Positions 41,441-50,387 of a stretch of DNA of 64,000 bases are shown here, piece after piece. Within the stretch, counting starts at the first letter, position 1; the number at the start of each line of letters is the position of its first letter. This DNA comes from Microcoleus sp. Lineage in GTDB: Bacteria > Cyanobacteriota > Cyanobacteriia > Cyanobacteriales > Microcoleaceae. The position numbers and the translations under genes were made by a program. The notes beneath the pieces were generated by a model. The model worked only from the letters and a program-made list of their open reading frames with translations, did not search any database and had not been told where the DNA came from. The DNA lies in assembly GCA_042408215.1 (NCBI GenBank), contig JAYFMW010000006.1, positions 480,001 to 544,000 on the forward strand, read 5' to 3'.

Positions 41441-41516
41441 CTGACTTGTGGGCGATCGCGGATTCAGGAACAATTGGCGCACAGCGATCAATCCTGAACA
41501 ATCCACTCTTCACTCT

Positions 41517-42593
41517 ATGGTCAGTTCAACTACTAAATCGGAGTCGGCTGGTCTACCATCCGGCATTAAAGCACCCGTTCAAGAAACTCTGTTAACACCC
41601 CGGTTTTACACCACAAATTTTGATGCCGTCGCTGAGATGGATTTGTCTGAGCAACAAGCGGAATTAGAAGCAGTTGTAGCAGAATTGCGCGCCGACTATA
41701 ACCGCCACCATTTTGTCCGCAATCAAGAGTTTGAGCAATGCTGGGACAACATTGATGGCGAAACACGACAGGCGTTTATTGACTTTCTAGAACGCTCCTG
41801 TACCTCGGAATTTTCGGGTTTTCTGTTGTTCAAAGAACTCTCCCGCAAACTTAAGAATCGCCAACCTTTGTTATCGGAAGCGTTTAGCTTACTGGCACGG
41901 GATGAAGCGCGTCATGCTGGTTTCTTGAATAAGGCGATGACGGATTTTGGGTTGTCTCTGGATCTCGGCTATTTAACAAAAAATCGTACCTACACATTCT
42001 TCCCTCCAGAATGGGTGATCTATACGGTTTATCTGTCGGAAAAAATTGGCTACTGGCGCTATATTTTGGTGTTTCGCCATCTTGAACAACATCCAGAACA
42101 TCGAATTTATCCCCTGTTTCGCTACTTCGATAATTGGTGCCAGGACGAAAATCGGCATGGGGATTTCTTTAAGGCTTTGTTGCGATCGCAGCCCCAACTC
42201 TGGAATAGCTGGAAGGCAAGACTCTGGGCCCGCTTTTTCCTACTGACGGTGTTTGCCACCCACACCATGACGGTGTTGGAACGCTCTACATTTTATGACT
42301 CGATCGGCATCGACCCCCAGGAGTATAACAAGCAGGTCATTCATCACACCAACGCAACTGCCAAAGGGGCGTTTCCCAGTATTTTAGATACTCACCATCC
42401 AGAATTCTTTCCCCGTTTGGAGCAATGCGCGATCGCCAATCAAAAGTTGGCAGAAATCTCAAGTAACCAGCGCCCTGCCGCCATCCAATTTTGCCAAAAA
42501 TTACCCTGGATTGCTGCGATCGCGTGGCAGTTGTTGCGCCTTTATTTACTGCCCTCGATTAATGCTGAAACGTCCAGAACCGTGATTAATTAG
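41517..42593 (+). CDS. acsF: Mg-protoporphyrin IX monomethyl ester oxidative cyclase (low-O2 paralog, chlAII/acsF2)
   Basis: ETLLTPRFYTT, SCTSEFSG, and DEARHAG and DENRHG diiron motifs; ATG at 41517. Confidence 0.93.
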   Translation: MVSSTTKSESAGLPSGIKAPVQETLLTPRFYTTNFDAVAEMDLSEQQAELEAVVAELRADYNRHHFVRNQEFEQCWDNIDGETRQAFIDFLERSCTSEFSGFLLFKELSRKLKNRQPLLSEAFSLLARDEARHAGFLNKAMTDFGLSLDLGYLTKNRTYTFFPPEWVIYTVYLSEKIGYWRYILVFRHLEQHPEHRIYPLFRYFDNWCQDENRHGDFFKALLRSQPQLWNSWKARLWARFFLLTVFATHTMTVLERSTFYDSIGIDPQEYNKQVIHHTNATAKGAFPSILDTHHPEFFPRLEQCAIANQKLAEISSNQRPAAIQFCQKLPWIAAIAWQLLRLYLLPSINAETSRTVIN

Positions 42594-42604
42594 GAGATAC
42601 GATC

Positions 42605-43351
42605 ATGACTAATCTATCGACACGCCTCCGAGAAGGCACGATGCAATCCCACACCACATCCGAAAATACGGCATTTATGAAATGCTTTCTGAAAGGCATT
42701 GTGGAACGGGAACCCTTGCGTAAACTATTAGCCGATTTGTACTTTGTCTACAGCACCCTAGAAACGGCTTTGCAGAGCCATGTCAACCACCCGATCGTCG
42801 GGGCCCTCTATTTCCCTGAGTTAAATAGGGCTGAGAATCTGGCTCGCGATTTAGCGTTTTATTACGGTGAAAATTGGCGGGAGCAAATTACGGCTTCGCC
42901 AGCGGGTTGTGTGTATCGCGATCGCATTCAAACCCTCTCAGAAACCGATCCGGCGTTGCTGATTGCCCATGCTTACACCCGCTACATGGGTGATTTATCC
43001 GGCGGACAAAGCTTGAAAAACGTGATTCGAGCGGCACTATCTTTGCCATCAAATCAAGGCACTGACTTCTATGAATTTGACCAAATCTCGACACCGGAAG
43101 CAAGGCGAGTATTTAAGGAACGCTATCGCCAAACCTTGGATGAGTTTCCGGTGGATGCTGACACGATCGAGCGAATTGTCGCAGAAGCAAATGCGGCATT
43201 TGCCCTCAATCGGGATGTGATGCATGAACTCGAAGCTGATGTGAAAGCGGCGATCGGAGAGCATACCTTTGATTTGCTGACTCGGCAAGATCGCCCCGGC
43301 AGCACAGAACGCCGCGGGCATGGGGCTGAGCGAGAATCTGTCGCGAAATAG
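42605..43351 (+). CDS. ho2: Heme oxygenase 2 (biliverdin-producing)
   Basis: LREGT..SH, AHAYTRYMGDLSGGQ, EANAAFALN; C-terminal extension and gene context fit HO2. Confidence 0.9.
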   Translation: MTNLSTRLREGTMQSHTTSENTAFMKCFLKGIVEREPLRKLLADLYFVYSTLETALQSHVNHPIVGALYFPELNRAENLARDLAFYYGENWREQITASPAGCVYRDRIQTLSETDPALLIAHAYTRYMGDLSGGQSLKNVIRAALSLPSNQGTDFYEFDQISTPEARRVFKERYRQTLDEFPVDADTIERIVAEANAAFALNRDVMHELEADVKAAIGEHTFDLLTRQDRPGSTERRGHGAERESVAK

Positions 43352-43409
43352 AGCGCCCAAGGAAAACAAGATCGATCGTATCTTTACAGCAATACGGTTC
43401 AGTTAAGTT

Positions 43410-43494
43410 CGATCCCCCCTAGCCCCCCTTACAAAGGGGGGGACAAGAACTTGACTCAAAGTCCCCCTTTTTAAGGGGGATTTAGGGGGATCTC
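43410..43494. repeat. CCCCCTAGCCCCCCTT..AAGGGGG double-hairpin dispersed repeat
   Basis: Same sequence family as the cargo of MITE copies A-D, here without their TIRs. Confidence 0.8.
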
Positions 43495-43548
43495 CGGGTT
43501 TGATGCAAAGTTTGAAAACACGCCCTAACACCTAACACCTACAGTTTC

Positions 43549-44946
43549 ATGAAACAGTTATCACAAGCGGTTGAATTTGATGCTGCATTGTTGAATAAAT
43601 ACAATCAGCCTTTACCCCGCTATACCAGCTATCCACCCGCTACGGAATTAAGCACTGAATTCGATCGCAACGCATTTAGAACCGCGATCGCCGTCGGCAA
43701 TCATAAACAAACCCCCTTATCGCTTTACTGCCATATCCCGTTTTGTGAAACGCCTTGTTATTTCTGTGGCTGCAATACCATCATCACCCAGCGCAAGGAG
43801 GTGGTAGAACCCTATTTAGGCTATCTCGATCGCCAAATTCGCCAACTTGCCAGTTTGGTGGATGCCGATCGGCTGGTGCATCAGTTGCACTGGGGCGGTG
43901 GCACCCCCAACTATCTCGATCGGAGTCAGGTAGAGTTTCTCTGGAACCAGTTAAATCGGCATTTTCGGTTCGATGACGCAGCAGAAATATCGATCGAAAT
44001 TAATCCTAGCTATATCGATCGCGAATATATTCTATTTCTGCGACAATTAGGCTTTAATCGGATTAGCTTTGGCATTCAAGACTTTAATCCCACCGTGCAG
44101 GAAGCAATCAATCGGGTGCAGCCCGAAGCGATGTTGTTTGATGTGATGGATTGGATGCGGGAAGCAGGGTTTGAAAGTGTCAATGTAGATTTGATTTACG
44201 GCTTACCTTTCCAGACACAAGCAACGTTCGAGGAAACGGTGCAGAAGACTTTGCAATTAAATCCCGATCGCATTGCCGTCTTTAATTTTGCCTATGTTCC
44301 CTGGCTCAAACCGGTTCAGAAACGGATGCCGGAATCCGCCTTGCCGACTGCTGGCGAAAAGCTGAAGATTCTGCAAAACACGATCGCCCAACTGACGCAA
44401 AATAACTATGTGTTTATTGGTATGGATCACTTTGCTAAGCCCAATGATGAACTGGCGATCGCGCAACAAGCTGGGCAACTCCATCGTAATTTTCAGGGTT
44501 ATACAACTAAGCCGGAATCGGATCTGTTGGGCTTTGGCATGACTTCCATCAGTATGTTGCAGGATGTGTATACCCAAAACCACAAGCGATTGAAAGACTT
44601 TTATCAGGCGATCGATGGGAAGGAATTGCCGATCGAAAAAGGCGTTCGACTCAATCAGGACGATCTGATTCGGCGCACAGTAATCATGGAATTGATGTGT
44701 CAATTCCAACTGTCGGTGCCGGATTTGGAAGAAAAATACCATCTCGGCTTCGATCTCGATTTCAATGACTATTTCGCCCAGGTATTGCCACAACTTGATG
44801 CCTTAGAAGCCGATGGGTTAATCAAACGTTGGGGTGATGGCATTGAAGTAACTGCGATCGGGCGATTGCTAATTCGCAATATTGCCTCCGTGTTTGATAC
44901 CTATCTCATACCCCAATCCAGCAAACGGTTTTCCAAGTCCCTGTAA
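43549..44946 (+). CDS. hemN: Oxygen-independent coproporphyrinogen III oxidase
   Basis: PRYTSYP, HIPFCETPCYFCGC radical-SAM motif, HWGGGTP, RNFQGY. Confidence 0.95.
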   Translation: MKQLSQAVEFDAALLNKYNQPLPRYTSYPPATELSTEFDRNAFRTAIAVGNHKQTPLSLYCHIPFCETPCYFCGCNTIITQRKEVVEPYLGYLDRQIRQLASLVDADRLVHQLHWGGGTPNYLDRSQVEFLWNQLNRHFRFDDAAEISIEINPSYIDREYILFLRQLGFNRISFGIQDFNPTVQEAINRVQPEAMLFDVMDWMREAGFESVNVDLIYGLPFQTQATFEETVQKTLQLNPDRIAVFNFAYVPWLKPVQKRMPESALPTAGEKLKILQNTIAQLTQNNYVFIGMDHFAKPNDELAIAQQAGQLHRNFQGYTTKPESDLLGFGMTSISMLQDVYTQNHKRLKDFYQAIDGKELPIEKGVRLNQDDLIRRTVIMELMCQFQLSVPDLEEKYHLGFDLDFNDYFAQVLPQLDALEADGLIKRWGDGIEVTAIGRLLIRNIASVFDTYLIPQSSKRFSKSL

Positions 44947-45042
44947 ATCGTCCTCAGAGTTGTTAACATAGTCCTGGACGCATAAATACCTTCATAACCG
45001 GGTTTTTGCGTAAGTCAAAACCAATACAACCAGGAAAAAATC

Positions 45043-46692
45043 ATGTTTTGCGAACAATGCGAACAAACAGCCAGCGGACAGGGATGCCATCAGTTTGGCG
45101 CTTGCGGGAAAAGTCCCCAGGTGAATGCTATCCAAGATTTGGTGATTTATTATCTGCGCGGGTTGGCTCCGATCGCCCTGAAAGCCAAGGAATTAGGCAT
45201 TGATACTCATACCGTGGATGTCTTCACCTGCGAAGCCATCTTTGCCACCATGACCAATGTCAACTTTTCCGAAAAGCGGTTTGTTGAGTATCTCCATGAA
45301 GCGATCGCCCATCGCGCCAACCTCAAGGCTCAAGTGCAGCAAGCAACAGACAATCCACCCACTTGGGCTGAAATTTCCAACTGGGAACCCAACTTTGAGG
45401 ACAGCCTGGTTGAGCAGGGTGAGCAGATTTCCCTCCAGTTCCTCAGTCAGTCTGCCTCGAATGTGGATATTTTCTCACTCAAACTCACCGTACTATACGG
45501 CGTTAAGGGTCTTGCCTCCTACACCTTCCACGCCTACGAAGTTGGACAGGAAGACGAGCGGGTGTATCGTTTCATTTACGAGGCACTTGTCGCTCTCGAT
45601 AACCCAACCTTGGGCTTGCAGGAGTGGGTGAATCTTGCTCTTGAGGTGGGAGCCATTAATTTGCGATCGATGGAACTGTTGGATACCGCACATACCAGTA
45701 CCTATGGACACCCAATTCCCACGCCTGTTCCCCTCAATCCACGCCAAGGGAAGGCGATTCTGGTTTCAGGACATGACATCAAACAACTCGAAGGCTTACT
45801 GAAGCAAACCGCAGCCACTGGAATTACGGTTTACACCCACGGCGAACTTCTACCAGCCCACGGCTATCCCAAACTCAAACAGCAGTACCCCCATCTCTAT
45901 GGTCACTACGGCACCGCTTGGCAGAACCAAACTAAGGATTTTGCCAAGTTCCCCGGTGCGATCGTGATTACGACCAACTGCTTAATGCCAACCCATTCCT
46001 ATTATGAAGATAAACTCTTTAGCGTTGGCCCAGTCGGCTATCCCGGCATTATTAACTTGAGTGCGATCGACAATGGCGCACCCGATTTTACTCCCGTTAT
46101 CTCGATCGCACTGGCACTTCCCGGCTTTACTGAAGATGCACCCCCCAGGGAAGTCAAAGTTGGTTTTGCCCACAATACGGTCTTGGGGGTGGCAGATAAA
46201 GTAATTGACGCTGTGAAACAGGGTAAAATCCGCCATTTCTTCCTGGTGGGGGGCTGTGATGGAGCCAAACCCGATCGCAACTACTACACCGAGTTCGTCG
46301 AAAAGGTGCCTGATGATTGTGTCGTGCTCACCCTAGCTTGCGGTAAGTTTCGGTTCTTCGATCAAGATCTCGGAGAGATTGACGGACTCCCCCGCCTGAT
46401 GGATCTCGGTCAGTGCAACGATGCCTACTCCGCGATTAAGATTGCTGTAGCACTAGCCAATGCCTTTGAGGTCGGTGTCAACGATATACCCCTGTCCATG
46501 ATTCTGTCCTGGTATGAACAGAAGGCCGTAGCCGTCTTGCTAACTCTCTTGCATCTGGGGATTAAAAACATTCGCCTAGGGCCGACATTACCGGCATTTA
46601 TTTCTCCGAATGTATTCAAGCTACTGTCGGAGCAATACAACTTGCAGGCCATTACCACCCCTGATGCCGATCTGGCAGCTTGCTTGAGCTGA
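45043..46692 (+). CDS. hcp: Hybrid cluster protein (hydroxylamine/NO reductase)
   Basis: MFCEQCEQT..GC...GACGK, SGHD, YTHGE, TTNC, VGGCDG, GQCND, SWYEQKA. Confidence 0.95.
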   Translation: MFCEQCEQTASGQGCHQFGACGKSPQVNAIQDLVIYYLRGLAPIALKAKELGIDTHTVDVFTCEAIFATMTNVNFSEKRFVEYLHEAIAHRANLKAQVQQATDNPPTWAEISNWEPNFEDSLVEQGEQISLQFLSQSASNVDIFSLKLTVLYGVKGLASYTFHAYEVGQEDERVYRFIYEALVALDNPTLGLQEWVNLALEVGAINLRSMELLDTAHTSTYGHPIPTPVPLNPRQGKAILVSGHDIKQLEGLLKQTAATGITVYTHGELLPAHGYPKLKQQYPHLYGHYGTAWQNQTKDFAKFPGAIVITTNCLMPTHSYYEDKLFSVGPVGYPGIINLSAIDNGAPDFTPVISIALALPGFTEDAPPREVKVGFAHNTVLGVADKVIDAVKQGKIRHFFLVGGCDGAKPDRNYYTEFVEKVPDDCVVLTLACGKFRFFDQDLGEIDGLPRLMDLGQCNDAYSAIKIAVALANAFEVGVNDIPLSMILSWYEQKAVAVLLTLLHLGIKNIRLGPTLPAFISPNVFKLLSEQYNLQAITTPDADLAACLS

Positions 46693-46846: not shown

Positions 46847-46998
46847 TCTATTCAGAGGGATTCATCTGCGTTAATCTGTGTTTATCTGCGGTGAAAAAAA
46901 GAGAATGTATTAACCGCCCCGGACAAGGGATTGACGCTGATTCACGCAGAGGTCGAGAATAGAGATAGGAATGGGCGAGCGATCGGATGGATATTCAT

Positions 46999-47354
46999 AA
47001 AAAAGCTCGGTAAGTGGGAAACTCAGAGTCTTTAGACCTGAGAGGGAAACGACGCGGGTGGTTTTAACCACCGTGAATCCCCTTGCGGGGTGGAGGGTAT
47101 GGTTGCCCCTCCGGTTTTCTCTTGCGAGTAATGTTAGCTTCGCCAAAGTTATCAGGGCTTGTTAGGGTAACAACACTGTAAAGCGTGACTTTAGAACTGT
47201 TTAATTGCTACCGACAGAGCAGGGGACTAGCTTCGCATCCAAGCGGGTGTCGTGACCCAAATAACGTAGTCAGTTAAGACTGAGGCTGGTCAGAATAGCT
47301 TGCTTCGAGACTTGCTCTTACAAGCGAGCGTGTCTTTAGACCTGAGTTCCTGAC
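46999..47354 (-). ncRNA. Stand-alone HEARO / IscB omega-RNA in a non-autonomous IS200/IS605-like element
   Basis: Minus strand reads GTCAGGAACTCAGGTCTAAAGAC...GCTTG...CAAGC.TGACCAGCCTCAG..GACTACGTT..GTCACGACACC..GATGCGAAGCTAGTCCCCTGCTCTGTC..TTAAACAG..CAGTG..AACAAGC..TAACTTTGGCGAAGCTAACATTAC, the HEARO motif order. A second CTCAGGTCTAAAGAC hairpin sits at the other end; no iscB ORF. Confidence 0.85.
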
Positions 47355-47437
47355 ATTCTCAAAGAAGGCAGTCGGATTTTTACAGGCTACCGGGGTCAAA
47401 TGAATCTCGCTGAGTCGGAGTTATGAACCCGATCGCA

Positions 47438-48310
47438 TTAAGCATCGAGCATCCAAGCAACACACTGTTGCATTTGCTCGTGCATTGTTTCTCTGTCAGC
47501 ATTATACCTGCGGCCGTGTCCCGGCAACACCCACTCAAACTCATAATTAGCCAAATTCTGCATCGATTGGATTTGTTCCGCCCAAGAGTACCAGCAGACT
47601 TGGCGAAAAGCAATTAGCTGCTGCAAATTATCCGACCAAGCCAGATGATCGCCACTCAACAAAAACTTATTATTGTAAAGTAAAACTGTGTGACCTTTCG
47701 TGTGCCCCGGTACAGAAATAATCAACAAGTCATCTGCTATTTGATGCGGTTCGTGGCCCGACAATTGAATTTCTACACTGCGAGTATCCGCATTAATTTC
47801 GTCAGTATGAAGAATGCGATCGCACCCAAAATGGTCTCGGTATTGTTGATGATCTGCCACATCATCGCGGTGAGTCAAGTACAAATAGCGAAGGCCGCCC
47901 ATTGCTTCTATATTTTTAACTAGCGGCGGCACAAAACGAGGAGAATCAACCAAAATATTGCCCTCTGGGCGGACTATTAAATAGCTAGCTGCGCCGTAGG
48001 ATTTCTCTGAATGGTAGCCACAGTGGTAAATATTTTCTGTTACGATTGCGGGCAAACTTTGCTGAACTTCCTTGATATTTTTCGGTTTGTCAACAGTGCC
48101 GATCGAACTTGTGGGACAAGACAAAAGAGCCGCGAGCGATCGCCTTTCTGCCCTATCATCAGTTGGCTGCTGGTAAACCGCCGACTGTTCTCCCACTTCA
48201 ACAAATACTTCCGGTGCCATCCACCGACAAGTATCGCAGCTAATGCAGGTACTATCTACATAAAAATTACCACTAATATTTTCAGTACGCCGCCGATTAA
48301 TGTGAGCCAT
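47438..48310 (-). CDS. MBL-fold metallo-hydrolase with N-terminal ferredoxin-like domain
   Basis: CISCDTC...CP, THRDDVADH, PGHTKGH, SGD, LPGHG. Start MAHIN at 48310; the ORF-track extension is repeat. Confidence 0.88.
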   Translation of the reverse strand: MAHINRRRTENISGNFYVDSTCISCDTCRWMAPEVFVEVGEQSAVYQQPTDDRAERRSLAALLSCPTSSIGTVDKPKNIKEVQQSLPAIVTENIYHCGYHSEKSYGAASYLIVRPEGNILVDSPRFVPPLVKNIEAMGGLRYLYLTHRDDVADHQQYRDHFGCDRILHTDEINADTRSVEIQLSGHEPHQIADDLLIISVPGHTKGHTVLLYNNKFLLSGDHLAWSDNLQQLIAFRQVCWYSWAEQIQSMQNLANYEFEWVLPGHGRRYNADRETMHEQMQQCVAWMLDA

Positions 48311-48360: not shown

Positions 48361-49072
48361 GACTTACGCATGGGGGTTCAGAAACCGGGTTTTTTCGAGA
48401 ATACTTGGTTGTGGCGCGCTGATTCGGTAAAAAACCCGGTTTCTTTGAGGACTTACGCATGGGGGTTCAGAAACCGGGTTTTTACAGAGAATACTTGGTT
48501 GTGGCGCGCTGATTCGGTAAAAAACCCGGTTTCTTTGAGGACTTACGCACGGGGGTTCAGAAACCGGGTTTTTACAGAGAATACTTGGTTGTGGCGCGCT
48601 GATTCGGTAAAAAACCCGGTTTCTTTGAGGACTTACGCACGGGGGTTCAGAAACCGGGTTTTTACAGAGAATACTTGGTTGTGGCGCGCTGATTCGGTAA
48701 AAAACCCGGTTTCTTTGAGGACTTACGCACGGGTGGTCAGAAACCGGGTTTTTACAGAGAATACTTGGTTGTGGCGCGCTGATTCGGTAAAAAACCCGGT
48801 TTCTTTGAGGACTTACGCACGGGTGGTCAGAAACCGGGTTTTTTCGAGAATACTTGGTTGTGGCGCGCTGATTCGGTAAAAAACCCGGTTTCTTTGAGGA
48901 CTTACGCATGGGTGGTCAGAAACCGGGTTTTTTCGAGAATACTTGGTTGTGGCGCGCTGATTCGGTAAAAAACCCGGTTTCTTTGAGGACTTACGCATGG
49001 GTGGTCAGAAACCGGGTTTTTACAGAGAAGACGCGTTGTGGCGCGCTGATTCGGTAAAAAACCCGGTTTCTT
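48361..49072. repeat. 89-90-bp tandem array (8 units) of inverted-arm repeat
   Basis: Unit GACTTACGCAYGGG.G.TCAGAAACCGGGTTTTT..GAGAATACTTGGTTGTGGCGCGCTGATTCGGTAAAAAACCCGGTTTCTTTGAG. Confidence 0.95.
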
Positions 49073-49085
49073 TGTCGGAGAGGTT

Positions 49086-50387
49086 CTACCGCTGCTGAGT
49101 CGCTGGAAAAGCACCAGCTTTCACGGCCACAGTCACAACTTGTCCGCCACGGCTCAATTCAAGCTGCATATCGTTACCAACTTTACTTTTCTCCACAATT
49201 TGCTGTACGCTGCCAGCATCGCTCACCTCTTGACCATTAATTTTCTTAATCACATCAGCAACGCTAACTCCAGCTTTGGCCGCCGGAGAATTTTTCGCAA
49301 CTCCCAAAACTAACACACCTTTATCTTCAGTCAACCTCAATTTGGTGTTCGGATTTCTATTGAATTCTGCCTTGACTTCGGGAGTAATACTCAACATCCG
49401 AACCCCCAAATAAGGATGGTCGGCTTTCCCTGTTGATACTAACTGATCGGCAATTTGTTGAGCGCGATCGATCGGAATTGCAAAACCCAATCCTTGAGCA
49501 CCTTGAATAATCGCCGTATTCATGCCGATAACTTGACCGCGCTGATTCAGCAATGGGCCACCGGAATTTCCCGGATTAATCGCAGCATCCGTTTGAATAA
49601 AGCTGACGCGCTTGTCGGGAACGCCCACATCAGCGCTGGAACGACCTGTAGCGCTAATAATGCCCACAGTAACAGTATTGTCCAAACCGAGGGGATTGCC
49701 GATCGCGATCGCCCATTCTCCCGGCTGTAACTCTTCCGATTTACCCAAACTAACCACAGGCAAATTGTTAGCTTCAACCTTAACAACAGCCACATCTGTA
49801 ACTGTATCTATACCTAAAACTTTGCCCACAAATTCCCGGCCATCTTTCAGTTTTACCGTCACCGTATCCGCACCATCAACAACGTGAGCGTTAGTCAAAA
49901 TGCGGCCGTCGGAACCAAAAACAAAACCCGAACCTGAACCCTTTTCTACTCGATTTTCCGGCAGAATCGGAGATTCTGAGCCAAAGAAGCGGCGGAAAAA
50001 CGGGTCTTCTAAAACATCAGGCTGTTGGCTGTGAACTGTGCGAGACGAATTAATCCGTACCACCGCCGGCCCGACTTGCTGCACTACTTTTGTCACAAAA
50101 TTAGAGTCTTGAGAAGGCAGTATATTGATAGGTGCTGCTGCAATTGGCGCTGGACTTGAGGGTTCAGCTTTGATCGCATTAGAAGTTCCCGGCGCTTGGG
50201 AAGTTAGGGCGTTGCACCCAACCATTGCGGTGGAGCCCAGCAAAACTAGGTATAAACAAGCAAGTTTTTTCGGCAAAGATAAAGTGCGATGATGCTGAGT
50301 TTGATTAGGCATATTTTTGCTTTCCGTAATATTGATTTGGTGGGAGTCAGAGCGAGAATTATAATTATGGTTTTTCATTTGTAACAC
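49086..50387 (-). CDS. HtrA/HhoA/HhoB serine protease with PDZ domain
   Basis: [32 protein letters not shown]; lipobox-like MVGC. Start may be 50312. Confidence 0.93.

Follow-up and report, generated by a model that had tools for sequence, protein, structure and literature searches.

A protein-free IscB omegaRNA mini-element in a Microcoleus genome and the start-codon pattern of its relatives

How does a mobile element that carries a guide RNA and no protein gene come to stand at one exact site, and what keeps it there? The question is raised by a short element in a 64,000-nucleotide stretch of Microcoleus sp. DNA (the window), which is part of a 7.36-Mb cyanobacterial genome (G000; bare C-numbers below refer to this genome). 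The original prediction described an orphan IscB omegaRNA element with both ends and no nuclease gene. Its main interpretation is supported overall, with three corrections, which concern the names of the ends, an apparent ribosome-binding site and the way in which iscB went missing. The locus has a match to the RNA family, both ends and an empty site in relatives; candidate helper genes with matching ends occur in the genome, and the family is biased to sense-transcribed sites. We give a probability of roughly 0.6 to the reading that the element was pasted in ready-made by a TnpA from elsewhere and has been kept by a read-through guide and a borrowed IscB.

An element of 356 bp at an ATGA site

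The features of the locus, with coordinates counted in the window, are listed below.

46995..46998, minus: ATGA target and predicted TAM, outside the element; TCAT on the IS top strand, and ATGAA with the next base
46999..47354, minus: the whole protein-free IS200/IS605 mini-element, 356 bp, as defined by empty alleles, a 356-base skip and sibling ends
47018..47042, plus: left-end DNA guide GAAA (47018-47021) and subterminal hairpin (47022-47042); predicted TnpA site, from the DNA fold
47079..47112, minus: filler of type I occupying the place of iscB; CAACCATA-loop hairpin (47112-47092) and small GC hairpin (47090-47079)
47128..47354, minus: HEARO / IscB omegaRNA scaffold (RF02033), its 5' end being the transposon right end
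47321..47354, plus: right-end CAAG (47321-47324), hairpin (47325-47346) and cleavage motif TGAC (47351-47354), from the sequence and sister ends
47355..47374, minus: predicted guide in the host flank 5' of the scaffold, from empty alleles and the geometry of Meers et al.; length predicted
47355..47423, plus: remnant of an NrdG-like radical-SAM gene, comprising its last 23 codons (tblastn, 95.7% over residues 208-230)
47438..48310, minus: ferredoxin-domain / metallo-beta-lactamase-fold (MBL-fold) gene (ORF, PF13370, weak PF14597); predicted source of read-through

The omegaRNA scaffold had been predicted on the minus strand from 47354, with a covariance-model search as the check. The Rfam HEARO model (RF02033) matches the minus strand from 47354 to 47128 over its full length (positions 1-211 of 211) at 120.3 bits (E 2.6e-24), the gathering score being 83 bits. 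HEARO is the only Rfam family found at the element, whose 129 nt outside HEARO were included in a check for a group I intron or IStron; RNA folding of the whole element was uninformative (z -1.6). No IscB-like sequence was found 3' of the omegaRNA in the 356-bp element, in line with the predicted lack of a nuclease gene. A small hidden protein, in the element or after the ATGA, was considered and rejected: the ATGA frame has 18 codons and runs antisense to the gene relic.

The predicted length of about 356 bp, the second hairpin and the terminal ATGA are all present. The element stops at 46999, the ATGA at 46998-46995 comes next, and there is no target duplication. A 15-nt direct repeat with a small hairpin occupies 47332-47346 and 47028-47042. 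Both ends had been recognized correctly, but their naming is changed here: following published usage, the right end is the one that carries the omegaRNA and the left end the one next to ATGA, with the TAM written as TCAT on the IS top strand. On this strand, which is the plus strand of the window, the order is TCAT, left end, right end, TGAC.

Related strains had been expected to carry the flanks joined precisely at the ATGA, and they do. The locus of the MBL-fold gene was compared in 19 relative loci, four of which join the flanks exactly at ATGA; one has a GTGA joint, one is deleted over the site, and 13 hold unrelated DNA. Across 79 genus genomes the flank pattern has 17 exact matches, comprising 15 empty sites with ATGA, one with GTGA and one filled site, in G000 only. 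In contigs of two other public runs, exactly 356 bases are missing at 46998/47355, and the contigs of one public run, which may be the source sample itself, span both filled junctions without differences. The expectation that sister copies in the genome share both boundaries also holds. A chance match or an assembly artefact is ruled out by the RF02033 score, the public contigs and the empty alleles of the genus genomes. Because it retains both transposon ends and its empty site is on record, the element is a mobile unit rather than a mere orphan RNA. Among the sites without the element, GTGA is found in L035 (genome G007) and ATGG at G044:C96:26945; these alleles would escape insertion and cutting alike.

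The element sits in the remains of a gene. In eight relatives an intact frame of 226-230 codons on the opposite strand runs through the empty site and stops 22-23 codons further on. The NrdG-like protein that it encodes matches TIGR02491 at 109.5 bits (below cut-off) and PF13353, and has a paralogue (80%) in G000 at C3:134621-135235. About ten further relic codons lie across the element; G000 has lost the remainder of the gene. The gene body is also absent from G003 and G007, yet their site is empty, so the deletion preceded the insertion; the insertion therefore breaks nothing.

The guide had been predicted to match the element's own empty site joined to ATGA. As the target is not duplicated, the predicted guide is identical to what stands 5' of the ATGA in the empty allele, and the empty alleles agree with it. 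Another ATGA-adjacent target for the guide was sought in G000, where the best match reached 12/16 (4 mismatches). The NrdG-like paralogue was rejected as a trans target, as it differs at the TAM-adjacent base and has GTGA.

The MBL-fold gene ends 83 nt upstream of the element on the same strand, close to the distance of about 84 nt given originally. A consensus scan of the minus strand found no terminator-like site from this stop to the element or inside the element. We infer that the window copy is transcribed by read-through from this gene. In public RNA libraries, the depth of the element relative to its flank is no higher than in DNA runs, a comparison that uses contigs only and sums all copies. 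Upstream of the MBL-fold gene, positions 48364-49114 hold tandem repeats of about 120 bp, which are multi-copy in public contigs and give rise to spurious ORFs and a false N-terminal extension. Positions 41448-46692 carry four co-oriented genes, the last encoding a hydroxylamine reductase/hybrid-cluster protein; the first three we take to be an aerobic cyclase, a heme oxygenase and HemN, of a low-oxygen cluster.

Candidate helpers and the origin of the copy

The GAAA 5' of the left-end hairpin recurs at nearly all of the 46 sister ends and in three TnpA-bearing IS605 copies, and the first 30 nt of the element are identical to those of an intact iscB element at C3:407065. By the position rule for such guides, GAAA would fit TCAT and CAAG would fit TGAC. 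The right end of the IS605 helper in G000 has the guide GAAT with the motif TCAA. For IS608, PMC3201880 describes pairing between such guides and the cleavage sites (AAAG with TTAC), the other motif being TCAA.

An iscB-containing relative had been thought to exist in the genome, and two intact elements with the same ends encode a 423-aa IscB (C3:407065-408660 and C8:38568-36976); both have the left-end type of the window element. The C3 IscB scores 462 bits against NF040563 and has the RuvC and HNH motifs. Five further intact iscB elements in G000 (C20:210900, C17:708317, C3:80886, C5:298108 and C10:171009) have a different left end, purine-rich just before the ATGA, and were left out of the counts. 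TnpA has 20 matches in G000; among 13 loci inspected, three (C13, C30 and C17) adjoin a like left end followed by ATGA. The TnpA frame is open in C13 and C30 and contains a stop in C17, and the HUH and Tyr residues of the candidate helper are present. Judging from these sequences, the C13/C30 TnpA would mobilize the 356-bp element. The scaffold would load into an IscB of the C3/C8 type, and that IscB would use an ATGA(A) TAM. At C8:71450-73284 (L198), a recombinase-like ORF and a TnpB come after an A-type left end; the ORF is presumably serine-recombinase-like, as if an IS607 were nested inside IS605-type ends.

The slot of iscB is taken by the filler. A ribosome-binding site followed by ATA had been seen there; the letters GGAGG and ATA are present (47112-47098), but they are now read as part of a covarying hairpin and not as a ribosome-binding site, which may still be the ancestry of the hairpin. 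In an alignment of 40 rows (the window and 39 of 44 motif hits, with four off-target hits and one row excluded), 94.5% of the hairpin cells are paired and four of the five pairs changed two-sidedly. The covariation score is reached by none of 500 shuffles, which is support rather than proof, as the rows were chosen by their loop and are mutually related. The CAACCATA-loop hairpin usually occurs twice in sisters, and the window copy has one of the two. A second filler type (II), of about 110 nt, is also found among the sisters.

The window copy has a mosaic structure: it shares 93.7% identity over its first 238 nt and 98.9% over its last 89 nt with the sister at C5:490874, which has a type II filler where the window copy has type I. 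The best whole-length identity in G000 is 79%, so no close twin is seen there, and a search of the other 78 genus genomes did not turn up the exact filler. The last 129 nt are identical at 126 of 129 positions to a mini-element at the sodB start codon of an unrelated record (L153), and because this tail recurs there, the architecture moves as a unit. The element had been called iscB-deleted; the absence of iscB stands, and its loss in place probably does not, given this tail at the other site. The copy was probably a mini-element already when it arrived. In-place decay, in which a full iscB element was inserted here and lost its gene later, could draw on the filler start, purine-rich like the leader of the intact C3 element, and on the last 81 nt, which resemble the stretch after the iscB stop in C3 and C8. 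However, none of the IscB-like residues are left, the same tail stands at an unrelated site in another genome, and both types of filler are found again at dozens of unrelated sites, which together make such decay highly improbable.

Start codons, read-in and the TnpB-type comparison

There are 70 HEARO matches in G000, 64 of them above cut-off; 25 have IscB sequence behind them and 45 do not. A far end was recognized in 46 of the 70 copies (42 minis and four iscB elements), and ATGA follows every one, with the proviso that two of the three far-end motifs demanded an ATG-like start. When the end motif was used without ATG in 141 related loci, it was followed by ATGA in 136, GTGA in one and ATAT in one, with three unplaced; named records with the same end motif are mostly from Microcoleus and kin. 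A fifth base A, needed by the Geobacillus IscB, is found in only 22 of the 46 G000 copies. An extended target preference around the ATGA was also looked for, and none was clear in 128 distinct sites compared with 1,493 ATGA starts.

The sites of these elements are far from random. In G000, 27 of the 46 elements stand on the first ATG of an ORF of at least 100 codons (p 4e-12); the null under a crude ORF model is 4.5% of all 50,012 ATGA sites and 14.4% of the non-disruptive ones. Among 80 ORFs of relatives, Pfam identifies as hosts the beta clamp, EF-G, L19, L36, trigger factor and SecG, together with ArgG, Psb27, PetM and SodB. At least seven of 13 sites shared with G000 carry a different subtype in the other genome, twice with a different left end (at psb27, ftrV, a speA-like gene, fusA, pntA, rplS and one unnamed gene), which points to repeated insertion.

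The window copy is atypical, most of its sisters being on host start codons. In the 13 non-start copies, including the window copy, the upstream gene is co-oriented in 10 (null 51%) and the downstream gene in 11. At C7:188858 the copy is flanked by convergent genes, and no read-in is evident. The window copy could be a neutral passenger, a mini-element moved by TnpA into dead DNA and left to drift, its omegaRNA neither made nor used here. A gene relic as the site, an insertion in one of 79 genomes, public RNA contigs that give no expression support either way, and a mosaic copy with one of two filler hairpins lost all suit this alternative. It fits less well with a complete scaffold scoring well above cut-off, with two intact end guides and with an orientation that follows the family bias (the 10 of 13, small numbers), and we regard it as unlikely, though worth keeping in mind.

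The TnpB-type elements of the genus (IS605 and their minis) share the ATGA target and the GAAA guide with the omegaRNA elements, and their hairpins are related. In relatives, 45 of 64 distinct omegaRNA mini sites (two undetermined ones excluded, and frames open to the end of short loci scored as long) lie before an ORF of at least 100 codons, compared with 10 of 60 TnpB-type sites (p 1e-9). The TnpB-type set comprises all 63 usable end-motif matches in relatives, two contig-edge matches being left out, and no HEARO was found in these 63. Its start-codon rate does not depart from the 14.4% null (p 0.58), and the interior-verified subset gives 7/34. With singletons only, the counts are 27/40 for omegaRNA minis and 10/58 for the TnpB type; in G000, 6 of 23 hand-collected TnpB-type sites and 29 of 46 omegaRNA sites precede such ORFs (p 0.005). 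Gene calls in these comparisons follow crude ORF rules, and the p values overstate the case because related genomes are not independent, even with the sites de-duplicated. The TAM-side gene is co-oriented in a ratio of 46:3 for the minis versus 30:26 for the TnpB type, and of 8:2 versus 21:25 after removal of start-codon sites (p 0.08). Age was rejected as the cause of the contrast, since the TnpB-type copies of relatives are 72-98% like the G000 references and singletons keep it. Five apparently identical 405-bp TnpB-type minis with the ATGA target (C5:73348, C5:494024, C11:18899, C17:90706 and C28:101751) form a recent burst in G000, none of them on a start codon.

The contrast favours retention by a borrowed IscB with a host-transcribed guide over transposase targeting. 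The competing explanation is that the bias comes from insertion preference or host tolerance: TnpA or the IscB-RNA complex would favour translation starts, or the U-rich left end would be harmless only there. Hot spots do exist, because shared start codons carry different subtypes (the at least seven of 13 above) far more often than the roughly 0.8 coincidences expected. Moreover, IS608 favours highly transcribed genes according to PMC5027513, and solo left ends persist in front of hisG and other genes. The TnpB-type elements, however, share the TAM and the GAAA guide and have related hairpins, yet they are not enriched at start codons (10/60) and have no orientation bias; no extra target bases surround the ATGA, and tolerance alone cannot lift start codons above intergenic sites. 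We therefore consider preference or tolerance improbable as the source of the bias. On the retention reading, omegaRNA mini copies likely last only where host transcription makes the guide RNA.

Several further observations concern the left end next to host genes. Its role as a strong ribosome-binding site was rejected: a 4-base Shine-Dalgarno match occurs in 5/33 start-codon copies versus 9/33 native leaders, so a replacement Shine-Dalgarno sequence is not general, and the A-type left end offers at most GAG and a U run, a weak match. Solo left-end remnants, some shorter than 30 nt, precede host start codons in G000 (C6:923550, C20:689448 and C30:395191) and elsewhere (L067, L084, L133 and L170, including one site in eight loci and a Nostoc record); hisG is preceded by one in both G000 and a relative. 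They look as if kept as leaders after loss of the omegaRNA. Some elements are compound, with two successive left ends; they occur in G000 at C28:196133, C30:557027, C4:3999, C30:231181 and C12:73846, and their outer end has GAGG about five bases before the ATG, a good Shine-Dalgarno match. A mini-element at C17:266821-267192, shared with another genome (L147), is inserted in frame into a 700-codon gene, seven codons from its stop. A frameshifted iscB element at C23:22798-24418 has a 1,500-nt upstream flank identical to one in C28 (255097-257911). There, the same 16-nt guide match followed by ATGA makes a perfect self target for the C23 element, and 191 further bases lead to a second ATGA, the start of a response regulator; in C23 these bases are replaced by the element. 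The pair may reflect a left end that moved to the downstream ATGA with the native leader lost, or the assembly of two variants.

The course of events that we propose begins with a TnpA encoded elsewhere in the genome, which would insert the ready-made mini-element exactly 5' of the ATGA in the gene relic. Transcription from the promoter of the MBL-fold gene would read into the guide and scaffold, and a borrowed IscB with this guide RNA would cut any chromosome copy without the element; repair from a filled sister chromosome would then restore it. For the family at large, the shared transposase would put both kinds of element at ATGA, and only omegaRNA copies on host promoters would be restored or driven. 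The omegaRNA minis would pile up under host promoter read-in, above all at ATG-A start codons, and the TnpB-type RNA, made inside the element, would leave start-codon landings at the chance rate.

Significance and comparison with known systems

Taken by itself, the window copy is unremarkable: it has clear boundaries and belongs to a kind already described. The insertion is strain-specific, its empty allele is known, its guide is unique, and candidates for IscB and TnpA are present in the same genome, which makes it a test case of whether protein-free omegaRNA elements borrow their nuclease in nature. The TnpB contrast turns RNA-guided retention, so far a matter of E. coli assays, into a prediction on accumulation in wild genomes. 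A wider reading, which we put forward tentatively and at slightly less than even odds, is that guide-RNA-only elements of cyanobacteria form a gene drive on host promoters, with a shared IscB and multiple chromosome copies. If this were true, copies on start codons (even of dnaN, fusA, rplS and rpmJ) or in 3' trailers would get their guide from the host, and the left end would stay behind as the new leader of the host gene. The TnpB-type sisters would be a natural negative control, and the pattern would give population-level evidence for stand-alone omegaRNAs working in trans in the wild. It would also explain the hundreds of bases of structured RNA ahead of essential cyanobacterial genes.

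Stand-alone omegaRNAs work with IscB (Hirano et al., PMC9581776, citing Altae-Tran et al. 2021). The window element resembles these RNAs and the RF02033 family in its full-length family match, a guide outside the element 5' of the scaffold and the lack of a linked protein. Unlike them, it keeps both transposon ends and has a documented empty site, its function in trans being predicted.

For ISC elements, the target N|ATGA is given by Kapitonov et al. (2016; PMC4810608) for ISC1-1_MA of Microcystis and its TnpB partner IS605B-1_MA; the main text of that paper has no occurrence of 'start codon'. With this pair the window element shares the 5'-GT terminus and insertion just before ATGA without duplication. 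As in ISC1-1_MA, the end is shared with a TnpB-type IS605 and TnpA would act in trans, here from a candidate gene. It differs from ISC1-1_MA in having a small structured filler instead of iscB or isrB. With no IscB-like bases downstream, it falls outside the iscB-encoding ISC elements and is an ISC derivative rather than ISC proper, because iscB is absent.

In the ISGst5 system of Geobacillus stearothermophilus, as presented by Meers et al. (bioRxiv 10.1101/2023.03.14.532601), IscB omegaRNAs require transcription from outside the element, and iscB elements, unlike tnpB elements, have a bias to a co-oriented upstream gene. IscB cuts the empty donor joint there, and without the nuclease excision loses the element. 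The window element is similar in its right-end omegaRNA in need of read-in and in its predicted TAM, TTCAT for the Geobacillus IscB being ATGAA here. It shares the protein-free state of the PATE-like ISGst5 derivatives, which would need nucleases in trans, and its family shows the same orientation bias of the iscB type and not of the tnpB type. In contrast to ISGst5, the present family is cyanobacterial, its minis outnumber full elements (45 vs 25 in G000), its target has four bases and it crowds at start codons, a feature not seen in the sections of Meers et al. compared here.

IS608 and PATE elements, with their single-strand transposition in the account of He et al. (2011; PMC3201880), are similar in their subterminal hairpins, in the four-base guides 5' of each foot and in keeping the target at the donor joint. 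The motifs differ, with a TCAT target and a TGAC right motif here versus TTAC and TCAA, and so does the distance from the left cut to the hairpin (23 nt here versus 19).

PATEs bearing omegaRNA are already in print. Start-codon crowding and the TnpB contrast have no account in the literature searched, from which Weinberg 2009 and Altae-Tran 2021 were outside. The window element has hairpins with four-base DNA guides at both ends, a fixed short left-end target without duplication, a precise empty site, no protein gene and dispersed copies with common ends. In conclusion, it belongs with the PATE-like IS200/IS605 derivatives and would work like the ISGst5-type IscB elements; the kind of element is known, and the control comparison with TnpB-type elements is the new part.
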